From: Candidatus Heimdallarchaeota archaeon
Lineage (GTDB): Archaea; Asgardarchaeota; Heimdallarchaeia; Heimdallarchaeales; Heimdallarchaeaceae
Length of the DNA stretch: 33,682 bases
Assembly: GCA_019057375.1 (NCBI GenBank)
Contig: DXJF01000015.1
Span: forward strand, 1-33,682
Direction: 5' to 3'
Under the pieces are notes generated by a model that made no database searches, was not told where the DNA came from, and saw nothing but the letters and a program-made list of their open reading frames with translations. A program made the translations under genes and the position numbers. This document shows, piece by piece, positions 25,215 to 31,236 of the stretch (positions are counted from its first letter, which is position 1; the number at the start of each line of letters is the position of its first letter).

Positions 25215-26330
25215 TCACGAAGTTACTCTATAAACAACACTTTCTTGATATCCAGTAATGACAATAACATAACCACTCAATAGCCGGTCTAGCTCGGTAT
25301 CTCCTGAATCTATTAAAAACGGATGACCATTTAATGAATTGATTTTATGGCTTGTTGCTATTACAATAATATTATCTTTTCCAACTTCCTTAATCACATT
25401 TGGACTTAATTGTTGATTACCTCTACCAAATAAGAAACCTTGCCCCCCAATAGGAGTAATAACTAATTTTGCTTTCTTTCCTTTTATATGTTCCAGCAAT
25501 TTTTTCTCATTAAGGTCTTCTTCTATCAGTTTCTTTCTATGAAGAAGGTCTACACCTAACAGAGTAAAATCAAGGTTTAATTTTTCCATGATAGTTCTGG
25601 TAGTAGTGCCTGGTCCAATAATATAGAAACAATCGTCCTCCATATCATCTATAATTTTTTGAGCTATCGCCTCTTGAGAATATTTTTCAGTTGGAGGACT
25701 CCCTGCTTTTAATCCCTGAATATACCTTCTCCCAAATGGAACCCTCAAGTAACCGTATAGTTTTGCAGATACAAACCCTTTTCTAAATGCTTCTTCATCA
25801 ATATCCATAACTTCAGCTTCTTTTAGCTCTTTCACTTTTCCTTGAAGGTAAATCATTGCTAAGTCTCCAGCTCTCATTGGATTGTAGGCAAAAACAGATG
25901 AATGCATTTTAACACCAGTTGGAATACCTAGTACTACAATTTCATTTCCAATTGAATTGTAAATATCTCTTGCAGTTCCATCCCCTCCAGCAAAAAGTAA
26001 AAGGTCGATTTTCATCTTAAACAAATCTTTACATGCCTGTTTAGTGTCATCTGATGAAGTCATTCCTTGAGTAATGGAACCTATAACCTTAGGATTAAAA
26101 CCACATTGATTTGCTACTTCTTCTCCCATCTCTTGAGGATAGGTAATGAGTTCAATTGCATTCTTGAGTGGAATAAGTCTTTCTAATGCTTTAACAGTAC
26201 GCTGCGGAGATACTTGTTCAGCACCCATACGTTTAGCTTCTGCCAAGATGGCTTGCCCATCAGTTCCTTTAAGTCCAACTTTACCCCCCATACCTGCAAT
26301 GGGGTTTACAATTAAACCTACTTTTTTCAT
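25215..26330 (-). CDS. COG3199 / AcoX-like ATP-NAD-kinase-family protein
   Basis: NPIAGMGG.VGLKGTDG, GGDGTARD, GVKMHS.VFA, EVMDIDE, GPGTTT, TLLGVD and GGQGFLFGRGNQQ. Confidence 0.85.
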   Translation of the reverse strand: MKKVGLIVNPIAGMGGKVGLKGTDGQAILAEAKRMGAEQVSPQRTVKALERLIPLKNAIELITYPQEMGEEVANQCGFNPKVIGSITQGMTSSDDTKQACKDLFKMKIDLLLFAGGDGTARDIYNSIGNEIVVLGIPTGVKMHSSVFAYNPMRAGDLAMIYLQGKVKELKEAEVMDIDEEAFRKGFVSAKLYGYLRVPFGRRYIQGLKAGSPPTEKYSQEAIAQKIIDDMEDDCFYIIGPGTTTRTIMEKLNLDFTLLGVDLLHRKKLIEEDLNEKKLLEHIKGKKAKLVITPIGGQGFLFGRGNQQLSPNVIKEVGKDNIIVIATSHKINSLNGHPFLIDSGDTELDRLLSGYVIVITGYQESVVYRVTS

Positions 26331-26352
26331 CTCAAATCATCTTTTGTAATTC

Positions 26353-27903
26353 TTACTTTTTACTCTTCTTTAAGTATGCTCTCCACGTAATAGCCCATCT
26401 TGTTGGATCATCTAATGAATCTACATCAATTTTATGAACAACACTTCTATGAGGAGCAGTCTTAACTATTTCTGGATTTTCATACGCTTCTTCTACAACC
26501 TTCTTTAGTCCAGCAATATATTCATCAATCTCAGCTTTGGAGTAAGATTCAGTAGGTTCTAGAGTAAAAGGTTGAGGAACAATGAAAGGATGATGACTAG
26601 ACCACATGTGAAAACCAAAGTCAACCATGCGACAAGTTATGTCCTCTGTTGTAACTCCAGTTTCCCTGTAAAGCTCATCCCAACTATAACGAACTTGTTC
26701 AATTCGGTGTCTTCCCTCTGCATAAGGCGCACTTGCACCACGAAGTTCTAACACCTTCTTTAATAGATAGTTATTATTGAGTACAGCGATTTCAGATACT
26801 TCTCTTAATCCTTTACTACCTAAACTCATAATCCAAGAATATGCTTTCAATATCGCGGGAACTACTCCATAAAAAGCTCTAACTTTACCTATGCTTCTGG
26901 GAACGTCGTAATTGAAAAAGTATTTACTCTCATCAAATTCAACTAAAGGAGTTGGTAGATATTTTATGAATTCTTCAGTTACGCCAAGAGCTCCAGCTGC
27001 TGGGCCACCACATCCATGAGGAGAAGAAAAGGTCTTGTGTAGGTTAAAGAAACAAAGGTCAAATCCTGCTTCTTTTGCTCTAGTAATTCCTAAAATTCCA
27101 TTAGCATTAGCTTGATCATAACCACACACTCCTCCAATCTCGTGGACAATTCGTGTAAATTCTCTTATTTTAGGATTAAAAATTCCTGTATCTTCTGGGT
27201 TGGTGATTAATAGTCCTGCAGTACGATTAGAAACAGCTTTCTCTAAAGCTTCAACAGCAGGTAATCCATCTTCATTTGGATAAATATTTATTATCTTGTA
27301 ACCTTTAACAATTGGTGCAGCAGCATCTGAAGGATGGGAAAACATTGTAGTAATAATCTCATCACGTTTTTCTGATTCACCTGATGCTTCATGGTGAGCA
27401 TGAATAATAGAAGCAATAGCGAATATTGCTTGGCTTCCCCCACTTGGTTGAAATGTAAATTTGTCTAAACCTGAAATTTCCCTCAAAAATAAGTCTAGTT
27501 TATAGATTATTTCTAGAATTCCTTGAACAGTGGTTTCATCTTGTGATGGATGAAGTTCAGTAAACTTTGAAGATGTAGCTAATTTTTCATTTATTTTTGG
27601 ACTATATTTCATCGTACATGTTCCTTGGCCAATATCAACATTCAAATCAGCTCCTAGGGTTTGCTGTGATAATCGAAGATAGTGTTTTAGGACTTGCATT
27701 TGAGAAAGCTCTGGTAGATTAGGAGGTTGTTCTCTTACCATATTTTTTGGTAAATTAGAGATTCCATCGCCAATATCCATTTCTATCTCTTTCTCAATCT
27801 CAGGAAATAGAATACCCCGTTCTCCTTTGTTACTTAATTCAAAAATTACCGGTTCATCCCATTTAGCTTGGTGGAAATTTCTTACTTTGTTTTTCCTGTT
27901 CAT
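26353..27903 (-). CDS. Divergent glycine-decarboxylase P-protein beta subunit (GcvPB-like)
   Basis: GTCTMKY.PK, L.ITNP...G.F and NLHKTFS.PHG.GGP (PLP lysine), EPTE. The true start is likely the ATG at 27903 (GGAGG RBS, ATGA overlap with the GcvPA-like stop). Confidence 0.85.
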   Translation of the reverse strand: MNRKNKVRNFHQAKWDEPVIFELSNKGERGILFPEIEKEIEMDIGDGISNLPKNMVREQPPNLPELSQMQVLKHYLRLSQQTLGADLNVDIGQGTCTMKYSPKINEKLATSSKFTELHPSQDETTVQGILEIIYKLDLFLREISGLDKFTFQPSGGSQAIFAIASIIHAHHEASGESEKRDEIITTMFSHPSDAAAPIVKGYKIINIYPNEDGLPAVEALEKAVSNRTAGLLITNPEDTGIFNPKIREFTRIVHEIGGVCGYDQANANGILGITRAKEAGFDLCFFNLHKTFSSPHGCGGPAAGALGVTEEFIKYLPTPLVEFDESKYFFNYDVPRSIGKVRAFYGVVPAILKAYSWIMSLGSKGLREVSEIAVLNNNYLLKKVLELRGASAPYAEGRHRIEQVRYSWDELYRETGVTTEDITCRMVDFGFHMWSSHHPFIVPQPFTLEPTESYSKAEIDEYIAGLKKVVEEAYENPEIVKTAPHRSVVHKIDVDSLDDPTRWAITWRAYLKKSKK

Positions 27904-30152: not shown

Positions 30153-30199
30153 AGGTTTTCCACTTCCTTTAATTGTTCTTATCTTAATAATTTCCCCAA

Positions 30200-30967
30200 T
30201 TACTCATCTAATGGTGTATATGGTCCAGCTGTTTCTCCACCATCGATAGCTATTGCTTGTCCTGTAATATATGCTGCTTCTGATGAGGATAAAAATGCGA
30301 ATAAACTAGCAACTTCCTCTGGTGCTGCATGACGGTTTAAAGGTATCTTTGAATTAACAACTTCTAGCATTTCAGGTGTATATTCTGCCTTTTGCATAGG
30401 TGTAAGAACATAACCTGGACAAATAGCATTTACTCGTAACCATGGAGCAAATTCTAGAGCTAACGATTTGGTTAGGAGGATAACTCCTGCTTTTGAACTA
30501 TTATAATCCGCATATAGTGGATGCCCCTCAATACCATTTGTGGAAGCGGTTAACAAAACAATTCCTGATTGTTGTTTTTTCATTCTTGTTATTGCTTCTT
30601 GGGAACAAAGGAACATTCCATCTAAATTTACGCGAAGAACTTTGGACCATTGTTCATAATCAATATTCAAAAATGGGCTGCGATAACTTATTCCTGCATT
30701 CGAAATTAGAATATCAATACCCCCCAGAATTTCATCTATCTTTTCAAACGCAAGTTTAACATCTTCTGGATTACTGACATCAGCATACACCCCTCCTTTG
30801 AGATTAGGAATAAGGGATAAAACTTTAGTTAAATTTTCTTCATTCCAATCAATGATAACAACCTTTGAACCTTCATTAACAAATCGTTGGGCAGTTGCCA
30901 ATCCAATACCACTAGCTCCACCAGTAACCACAACTCTTTTCCCTTCAAGATCTTTATACATACTCAT
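30200..30967 (-). CDS. Short-chain dehydrogenase/reductase (NAD-preferring)
   Basis: TGGASGIG, IDWNE, NAG, YNSSK and IDGG. The ATG at 30967 is preferred; the ORF track starts at the GTG at 30976. Confidence 0.93.
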   Translation of the reverse strand: MSMYKDLEGKRVVVTGGASGIGLATAQRFVNEGSKVVIIDWNEENLTKVLSLIPNLKGGVYADVSNPEDVKLAFEKIDEILGGIDILISNAGISYRSPFLNIDYEQWSKVLRVNLDGMFLCSQEAITRMKKQQSGIVLLTASTNGIEGHPLYADYNSSKAGVILLTKSLALEFAPWLRVNAICPGYVLTPMQKAEYTPEMLEVVNSKIPLNRHAAPEEVASLFAFLSSSEAAYITGQAIAIDGGETAGPYTPLDE

Positions 30968-31236
30968 TTTGATCACAGCTCTGTACTTCTAATAATCCTA
31001 TTTTATTTTTTCCCCAATAATTATAGTATCAATTAGATGGTGAGAGTGGAAAAATCTATTAATTAAATTGCTATTTCAAGTAGGTTATGAAAAAAAGCTA
31101 ATAGAAGCTTCGAGAAAGGTGTTTACAAAGATATTGCCGGAAATAACACCACATAAATAATGCGAATATAATGCACTTCTTAGAGGAAAACAATCACAAA
31201 AGCTTTAATTAATTCCAAGAATATTTATTAGACATT

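Follow-up and report, generated by a model that had tools for sequence, protein, structure and literature searches.

A P-protein paralog encoded with short-chain dehydrogenases and a NAD-kinase-fold protein in a Heimdallarchaeota genome most likely serves a substrate other than glycine

We analysed a stretch of 33,682 nucleotides of DNA (hereafter the window) from a Candidatus Heimdallarchaeota archaeon, contig DXJF01000015.1 of assembly GCA_019057375.1, which is contig C39 of a metagenome-assembled genome (MAG; 3.47 Mb in 159 contigs, 89% completeness, 4.95% contamination). Its minus strand carries a five-gene operon in the order SDR1, SDR2, GcvPA-like, GcvPB-like and NAD-kinase-fold gene, i.e., two short-chain dehydrogenases/reductases (SDRs), divergent relatives of the two subunits (PA, alpha; PB, beta) of the P-protein, the pyridoxal phosphate (PLP)-dependent glycine decarboxylase of the glycine cleavage system (GCS), and a kinase-like protein. 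The sequence comparisons suggest that the operon most likely represents a P-protein-derived enzyme system with a substrate other than glycine. We consider it quite probable that the genes form a module around a non-glycine paralog, and probable that this module is catabolic and built from a two-subunit P-protein that no longer acts on glycine; what it breaks down would most likely be another, hydroxylated, amino compound. The five genes are:

30200..30976, minus strand: SDR1, a classical NAD-type SDR of 258 amino acids with a GTG start at 30976 (Pfam match)
29361..30152, minus strand: SDR2, a classical NAD-type SDR of 263 amino acids (Pfam match)
27900..29312, minus strand: GcvPA-like alpha subunit of 470 amino acids (NCBIfam GcvPA; Pfam GDC-P)
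26353..27903, minus strand: GcvPB-like beta subunit with the PLP lysine, 516 amino acids from the ATG at 27903 (NCBIfam GcvPB)
25215..26330, minus strand: NAD-kinase/DAG-kinase-fold protein (COG3199/AcoX-like) of 371 amino acids (Pfam NAD_kinase and NAD_kinase_C)

The genes are tightly packed and co-oriented, with gaps of 47, 48 and 22 nucleotides and one ATGA overlap in which the alpha stop meets the beta start, and a GGAGG motif lies upstream of both the alpha and the beta start (in the latter case 7 nucleotides before the ATG at 27903); this layout, described in a first-pass annotation made from the DNA letters, was borne out by the open reading frames (ORFs), the gaps and the sequence. The longest ORF of the beta subunit extends from 27927 to 26353 (524 amino acids), and the start is probably the ATG at 27903 because most beta orthologues have 516 amino acids. 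For SDR1, alternative in-frame ATGs are found a few codons downstream of the GTG, within 30940-30970.

The window pair shares with GcvPA/GcvPB (EC 1.4.4.2; Thermus thermophilus structures 1WYT/1WYU/1WYV) the alpha/beta architecture and length and can be aligned to it over the full length; the alpha subunit scored 495.9 bits with NCBIfam NF001696 GcvPA (cut-off 364) and the beta subunit 571.7 bits with NF003346 GcvPB (cut-off 441). NLHKTF, which contains the PLP lysine, the stacking His of SHxxx and the Asp of YDxAN are retained by the beta subunit and by all members of its clade. However, several other signatures of the P-protein are replaced: the alpha loop (A)YTPYQPE(I/V)SQG is absent from the window alpha subunit, and SHG(T/S)N, YDGAN, PHGGGGP and (V/T)YFP are all altered in the window beta subunit. 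Aligned with the canonical pair of the same genome, the alpha loop reads AYAG-EPYEDHG versus AYTPYQPETSQG, and the alpha subunit further differs by NVPTYDW versus NCSLYDW and by RTSFHDRIEGKEFIGT versus REQHIKRERATSNICT, whereas the beta subunit has SHPSD, YDQAN and SHHP in place of SHGTN, YDGAN and VYFP; each of the motif changes listed in the first-pass annotation, and the intact NLHKTF, was found in this alignment. The replacements are shared by the clade, with AYaGEPyeDhGRF, VVNVPTyDw and RTSF..Re.gkEf.GT in the alpha subunit and SHPSD, YDQAN, PHGCGGP, HRIEQVRY and SHHP in the beta subunit, and conservation of the new motifs reaches at least 95% in 78-81 orthologues (81 sequences for the beta signatures), which argues for a selected new state and not for decay. 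In human GLDC, Y161 and Y164 of the YTPYQPE loop have been classed as active-site residues (PMC7259800), and the altered alpha loop covers the positions of both.

The genome contains three PA/PB pairs, located in the window, on contig C132 and on contig C36. The C132 pair possesses canonical motifs and is 36-40% identical to the window pair (36% for PA). Scores against P-proteins of solved structure are far higher for this pair than for that of the window: PB matched T. thermophilus 1WYT_B with 431.9 bits (C132) versus 300.6 bits (window), PA matched 1WYT_A with 277.3 versus 218.9 bits, and the human and Synechocystis P-proteins gave 270 bits with the C132 pair versus 164-173 bits with the window pair. 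One GcvT (contig C23) and three GcvH (contigs C81, C11 and C37) were identified in the genome, so a separate canonical gcvP/T/H set is present, and both GcvT and GcvH lie outside the window, as the first-pass annotation had stated; likewise no Lpd-type protein was found among the window's ORFs that were scanned, a set from which some small ORFs were left out. To place the beta subunit we used a quick IQ-TREE reconstruction of 74 rows, comprising the window sequence, the genome's own paralogs, 19 orthologous loci, 49 full-length representatives at 50% identity and three PBs from gcvT-gcvH-gcvPA-gcvPB operons, which mark the canonical side. The tree split into two sides with an SH-aLRT support of 100 each; the window beta subunit falls on the side without any operon-embedded canonical PB, the C132 copy on the canonical side. 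The separate clade, the canonical C132 pair and the conserved rewritten motifs together support the proposal of the first-pass annotation that the window pair is a P-protein paralog distinct from the genome's own glycine decarboxylase, as far as sequences can tell. Contig C36 (3158 bases) is filled by a second divergent PA/PB pair that shares 87-89% identity with the window pair; it is more likely a fragment of a related strain or species in the bin, in view of its contamination, but may be a true duplicate.

The paralog is widespread and so is its gene company. Among 80 loci fetched with a PB at 64-99% identity, all had PB, 79 had PA, 72 an SDR and 52 the kinase-like gene, with median identities of 60-73% to the window proteins. 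The conserved core consists of SDR, PA and PB, recurrently in the order SDR2-PA-PB, which SDR1 joins mainly in Asgard archaea, Aminicenantes and Desulfobacterales; gcvT or gcvH was found beside the module in none of the 80 loci. Archaeal carriers are Heimdall- and Hodarchaea, Bathyarchaeota and Brockarchaeota, and bacterial carriers include Aminicenantes, Desulfobacterales, Clostridia, Bacillota isolates, Bacteroidota, Gemmatimonadota, Planctomycetota and Chloroflexota. The family itself is large (of 8,000 candidates scored, 6,993 matched at E 1e-30 or better), and its database entries are named 'aminomethyl-transferring glycine dehydrogenase'. A literature search found no publication on a P-like/SDR/kinase-like family, and exact-sequence look-ups with a window protein and with a tblastn fragment returned no record.

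Both SDRs carry the classical signatures of their family (TGGASGIG/TGAASGIG and YNSSK/YCAAK) and are 35% identical to each other. SDR1 matched Pfam adh_short_C2 with 203.8 bits and adh_short with 182.4 bits, SDR2 matched adh_short_C2 with 228.3 bits, and neither reached the cut-off of a specific NCBIfam equivalog, the generic subfamily PRK07231 alone being passed. An Asp at the end of beta-2 (IIDWN) suggests that SDR1 would prefer NAD; in SDR2, the catalytic motif YCAAK and LIDIN, a NAD-type motif, can be read from the sequence. Best matches of the SDR1 type (57-97% identity) come from loci of Asgard archaea, Aminicenantes, Desulfobacterales and, in part, Bathyarchaeota, and many bacterial loci contain the SDR2 type only. 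SDR2 is the most consistent SDR companion of the P-like pair, with a match in 72 of the 80 loci (median identity 64%), mostly directly upstream of PA.

The kinase-like protein matched Pfam NAD_kinase (69.2 bits) and NAD_kinase_C (64.1 bits), no NCBIfam family was found at E 1e-3 or better, and its motif GGDGTARD is invariant in 30 kinase-like orthologues. In its structure model (pLDDT 86.8), residues 1-210 align to DgkB (Z 10.9), NADK (10.2), YegS (8.6) and SphK1 (8.3) in VIA-align. Only the N-terminal half was placed in this way, the C-terminal half being barely covered, and periplasmic binding proteins scored similarly, so the substrate cannot be guessed from the structure; searching solved structures by sequence returned nothing, and Foldseek gave weak matches only (TM 0.2-0.3). 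The GGDG motif and the modelled N-terminal domain would place the protein in the NADK/diacylglycerol kinase (DAGK)/sphingosine-kinase fold superfamily, and it is probably a small-molecule kinase. An identity with NadK itself (EC 2.7.1.23) was rejected: no NCBIfam match was obtained, and an ordinary NadK-type gene is present at 10478-11317 (NAD_kinase_C 100 bits). The function of AcoX (COG3199), which belongs to acetoin dehydrogenase operons, has been described as unknown (PMC10107126). By description, AcoX in acoXABC resembles the kinase-like protein as a NAD-kinase-fold protein whose gene adjoins that of a C-C-cleaving enzyme, one that in the canonical relatives passes its product to a lipoyl carrier; the partner is PLP-dependent here and thiamine pyrophosphate-dependent in the case of AcoX. 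A second COG3199/NAD-kinase-fold paralog is encoded on contig C132 (19833-20999, minus strand), 37% identical to the window copy and without an adjoining PA/PB; its neighbours have no Pfam family and offer no functional lead.

The first-pass annotation had linked the SDRs and the kinase to the P-like pair, and this linkage is kept across phyla, except that the kinase is not obligatory. The kinase-like gene adjoins the module in 52 of the 80 loci, and when a profile of 30 orthologues was searched against 14 carrier genomes without an adjacent copy, three had the gene elsewhere and one gave a fragmentary match of 47.6 bits, whereas this profile found none in the other 10, among them Brevibacillus ginsengisoli (an isolate) and two Bacteroidales genomes that exceed 6 Mb. 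The kinase-like gene is therefore a frequent but not an indispensable companion. It must also be an old one, because it is present with sister clades of the paralog too.

The surroundings of the module provide clues to its substrate. Bacterial modules are accompanied by polar amino-acid ABC transporters (Brevibacillus, Desulfobacterales), amino-acid permeases, a Na/glutamate (Glt) symporter, an Asp/Glu racemase, peptidases (M20, M28, M24 of the aminopeptidase-P type, DPP-IV) and sigma-54 activators. The commonest single neighbour is a LacZ-type beta-galactosidase of glycoside hydrolase family 2 (GH2; 9 loci, often directly upstream), and further sugar-related neighbours are GH63/YgjK-like glucosidases, GalK/GalT, fucosidases and a sulfatase. 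In one operon the order is LacZ, DPP-IV, SDR, PA, PB, kinase-like gene. X-Pro peptidases, a beta-galactosidase and an alpha-glucosidase would together suit the stripping of the Glc-Gal-hydroxylysine glycopeptides of collagen, and Clostridium collagenovorans is among the carriers. Collagen-type (galactosyl-)5-hydroxylysine is the leading substrate candidate, at best a doubtful one. In sister clades (L099/L100, L101/L102, L103/L104 and L105), which branch more deeply, the partners differ: one shows the order class-III aminotransferase, kinase-like gene, PA, PB, DAO, another TRAP transporter, aminotransferase, PA, PB, and a third alcohol dehydrogenase, SDR, PA, PB, kinase-like gene, polyamine-type ABC transporter, PuuA-like and PuuD-like gene, and inside the window's own clade a flavin amine oxidase gene adjoins PA at one locus (L048). 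Judged by these neighbours, the wider family appears embedded in amine metabolism, with partners that would make or consume carbonyls or amines. The neighbour survey revealed no conserved gene for handling coenzyme A (CoA) or acyl groups beside the module.

We propose as substrate an amino acid that is larger than glycine, hydroxylated and probably basic, and that would be supplied via peptidases, glycosidases and amino-acid transporters. The alpha2beta2 PLP enzyme would break a bond at the amine-bearing carbon, most simply by decarboxylation, and the carbanion would be protonated and not passed to a lipoyl-H protein. Oxidation by one or both SDRs would follow, at the adjacent hydroxyl either of the amino alcohol so formed or of the substrate itself, and the kinase-like protein, where present, would phosphorylate this hydroxyl. 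The specific order, decarboxylase and then SDR, is advanced tentatively.

Several observations weigh against a non-glycine catabolic module of this kind. Both subunits exceed the NCBI equivalog cut-offs for GcvPA and GcvPB; these models fail to split the paralog clade from the canonical clade. The active-site pocket was judged from sequence motifs alone (the alignment and PMC7259800). The non-core neighbours vary by lineage, so that the substrate guess derives from a minority of loci, and none of the Asgard loci is flanked by a transporter, peptidase or glycosidase gene. Moreover, carriers tend to possess a GCS: GcvT was present in 39 of 40 further carrier genomes, and a canonical PB occurred in 4 of 5 paralog carriers among the Clostridia versus 74 of 300 (25%) sampled Clostridia (Fisher p 0.014). 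GcvT was present in each of the 12 MAG carriers of Clostridia type (binomial 5e-8 with the 25% as proxy, uncorrected for relatedness), and genes for GRDB-type glycine, sarcosine or betaine reductase were found in 5/5 Clostridia carriers. This enrichment would also fit a link to glycine or to the H-protein and would allow glycine or an aminomethyl unit to be a product; it may, on the other hand, reflect nothing but an amino-acid-fermenting lifestyle.

The first-pass annotation had described an operon without GcvT, GcvH and Lpd genes. Clostridium collagenovorans DSM 3089 has the paralog but neither a canonical PB nor GcvT, and its only GCV_H match is a partial one of 27 bits, so the module can apparently work without these partners. 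This isolate is the single case that speaks for independence; the other carriers nearly always have a canonical GCS, and a functional link to glycine or one-carbon metabolism is possible. A dedicated H-protein for the module was considered and rejected, since carriers have 2-4 GcvH copies, and so do relatives from the same family and order that lack the paralog.

Among the alternatives to a decarboxylase acting first, the best placed, though rather unlikely, is that the SDR comes first and oxidises the hydroxyl adjoining the amine-bearing carbon to a ketone, after which the P-like enzyme would cleave the C-C bond of the amino ketone in the manner of a retro-Claisen reaction, which formally resembles decarboxylation, and release glycine (from threonine-type substrates) or an aminomethyl unit. 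This order would suit the fact that SDR, PA and PB are the minimal conserved set, that the class-III aminotransferase and DAO of the sister clades and the flavin amine oxidase of L048 also make carbonyls, and that carriers are rich in the glycine sinks described above (GcvT, canonical PB, GRDB). However, such chemistry is without precedent in the P-protein family, the enrichment of glycine sinks may mirror the fermentation of amino acids in relatives that are not independent samples, and a CoA- or acyl-handling gene is not conserved beside the module. The last point also separates the module from the route of threonine dehydrogenase and 2-amino-3-ketobutyrate CoA ligase (Tdh/Kbl). Both systems would pair a dehydrogenase acting on a hydroxy-amino acid with a PLP enzyme, and the Kbl route cleaves at the alpha carbon and yields glycine, a parallel that would fit the glycine sinks of the carriers, but Kbl, a member of the alpha-oxoamine synthase family, depends on CoA.

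It is unlikely that, instead, the kinase-like protein phosphorylates a vicinal amino alcohol and the P-like enzyme eliminates phosphate and ammonia to an aldehyde or ketone, which the SDRs would oxidise or reduce. The kinase-like gene accompanies PA-PB both in the main clade and in the differently partnered sister clades, the N-terminal half of its product resembles hydroxyl kinases including sphingosine kinase, whose substrate is an amino alcohol, and the lost carboxylate-side loop would fit a substrate without an alpha-carboxylate at the reacting amine. A precedent exists for 5-hydroxylysine and ethanolamine, each of which is handled by a kinase together with a PLP-dependent phospho-lyase (Veiga-da-Cunha 2012, cited in PMC8154272). 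The logic of the mammalian hydroxylysine kinase and 5-phosphohydroxy-L-lysine phospho-lyase (HYKK/PHYKPL) and of the ethanolamine kinase and its phospho-lyase, in which a hydroxylated amine is processed by a kinase and a fold-type-I PLP enzyme, is like that suggested here, and class-III aminotransferase genes adjoin sister clades of the window paralog; however, the known lyases have the class-III aminotransferase fold, whereas a NADK/DAGK-fold protein and a P-protein paralog would be employed here, so that the likeness is one of possible working and not of membership. HYKK and the ethanolamine-type kinases have the APH fold. Against the kinase acting first, no phospho-lyase activity is known in the P-protein family, and a kinase-like gene that was not found in 10 of the 14 carriers without an adjacent copy cannot be an obligatory first step everywhere.

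A further, quite improbable variant joins the SDR to the GCS: the SDR would oxidise a terminal vicinal amino alcohol, H2N-CH2-CH(OH)-R (e.g., 5-hydroxylysine), to the ketone, and the P-like enzyme, retaining the carbanion chemistry of the P-protein, would cut the aminomethyl ketone to a PLP-bound aminomethyl carbanion and free the acyl part (glutamate in the case of hydroxylysine), while GCS-bearing cells would pass the aminomethyl group to lipoyl-GcvH for GcvT. Such a reaction would explain why the enzyme descends from the P-protein, why the carboxylate side of its pocket is rebuilt, why the SDR is obligatory and why the module co-occurs so strongly with GcvT/H.

We regard it as very improbable that the pair is a genuine second glycine decarboxylase, i.e., an isoenzyme, perhaps operating in the reductive (glycine-synthase) direction, which uses the GcvH, GcvT and Lpd of the cell, with the SDR and kinase unrelated or regulatory. 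The equivalog cut-offs passed by both subunits, the intact PLP-binding residues, the GcvT of 39/40 carriers, the enrichment among GCS-bearing Clostridia and the three GcvH and one GcvT of the genome itself would all agree with it. However, the active-site loop and the beta signatures were replaced and then fixed across phyla, the module stands beside an SDR in 72 of the 80 loci and beside gcvT/gcvH in none, C. collagenovorans has the paralog in the absence of GcvT, GcvH and canonical PB, and GcvH copy number is alike in carriers and non-carrier relatives. Least probable of all is a biosynthetic module (e.g., for an amino-alcohol head group, an osmolyte or a cofactor precursor), for although the Asgard module lies amid housekeeping genes by a conserved PAP2 phosphatase gene with no transporter or hydrolase near, the uptake systems, peptidases, glycosidases and sigma-54 activators of the bacterial operons form an inducible-catabolism pattern and the distribution within Heimdall lineages is patchy.

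The catabolic module on a substrate other than glycine, which we prefer to these alternatives, was called a likely acquired one in the first-pass annotation. This has no compositional support, as the five genes match their flanks in GC content, GC at third codon positions and codon usage, and a recent acquisition is rejected on these grounds. The order PAP2, module, 316-amino-acid ORF, PPDK, SurE is common to 12 Heimdall MAGs; together with the composition, this indicates that any transfer was old and not recent. For an old transfer, the cross-domain tree and the patchy distribution are the evidence that points to it. The clade shows short branches that do not follow taxonomy, with the Heimdall sequences sister to a Desulfobacterales one, and archaeal and bacterial members are 65-75% identical. 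The paralog (at least 65% identity) was found in about 18 of 151 sampled genomes of the phylum, namely in 7-8 of 9 genomes of the window's genus and again in two other genera of the class, but in no other genera of the same family or order within this sample, including two single-contig genomes.

Three individual records may be mentioned in this context. The locus JAUWEG010000005, also labelled 'Candidatus Heimdallarchaeota archaeon', is 99% identical to the window locus. A genome from another family of the phylum (G474) carries a beta copy 88% identical to that of the window near a contig start (C164:804-2372), and relatives of this genome are without the paralog; the copy could be a recent transfer or a binning error. 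In the record DATKYH010000069 (L092/L093), named candidate division Zixibacteria, a full five-gene module of 81% identity adjoins genes for an Arf/Ras/Roc GTPase and a longin-like protein on an Asgard-looking contig, which may be misbinned or mislabelled.

Around the operon, the following features were recorded:

24193..25143, minus strand: lineage-specific ORF of 316 amino acids without a family, 71 nucleotides past the kinase-like gene
30977..31487, no strand: AT-rich intergenic region of 0.5 kb between the operon and the PAP2 gene, the presumed promoter region
31488-32255, plus strand: PAP2-superfamily phosphatase gene, divergent from the operon

The 316-amino-acid ORF may be co-transcribed with the operon. 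It occupies this position in 12 Heimdall loci and nowhere else among the fetched loci, and thus lies outside the widespread module; it has no Pfam family, and NCBIfam gives a weak match to the C-terminal part of the DarG antitoxin (E 5.5e-4). The PAP2 gene holds the same position in Heimdall loci, some of which have two copies. Its product might conceivably act on a phosphorylated product of the module. Genes for FolD (methylene-tetrahydrofolate dehydrogenase/cyclohydrolase; 4406-5341, plus strand) and serine hydroxymethyltransferase (5758-7137, minus strand) also lie in the window, about 18-21 kb from the module and amid RNA polymerase and ribosomal protein genes, and their presence there is probably a coincidence.

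Where metabolism is reconstructed for Asgard archaea, Bathyarchaeota, Aminicenantes and anaerobes of the gut or of sediments, a glycine-cleavage step may be counted that these organisms probably do not owe to this pair, and a real catabolic route may be overlooked. The high conservation of the module, its movement across domains and the existence of cultured carriers (Brevibacillus ginsengisoli KCTC 13938, Clostridium collagenovorans DSM 3089, Lutispora saccharofermentans and Clostridium hydrogeniformans) make its function directly testable. If the substrate were of the collagen-type hydroxylated kind, the module would mark a widespread anaerobic route for the degradation of animal matrix proteins, and if an aminomethyl group were transferred, it would represent a new entry into one-carbon metabolism, a 'hydroxylysine (amino-alcohol) cleavage system'.

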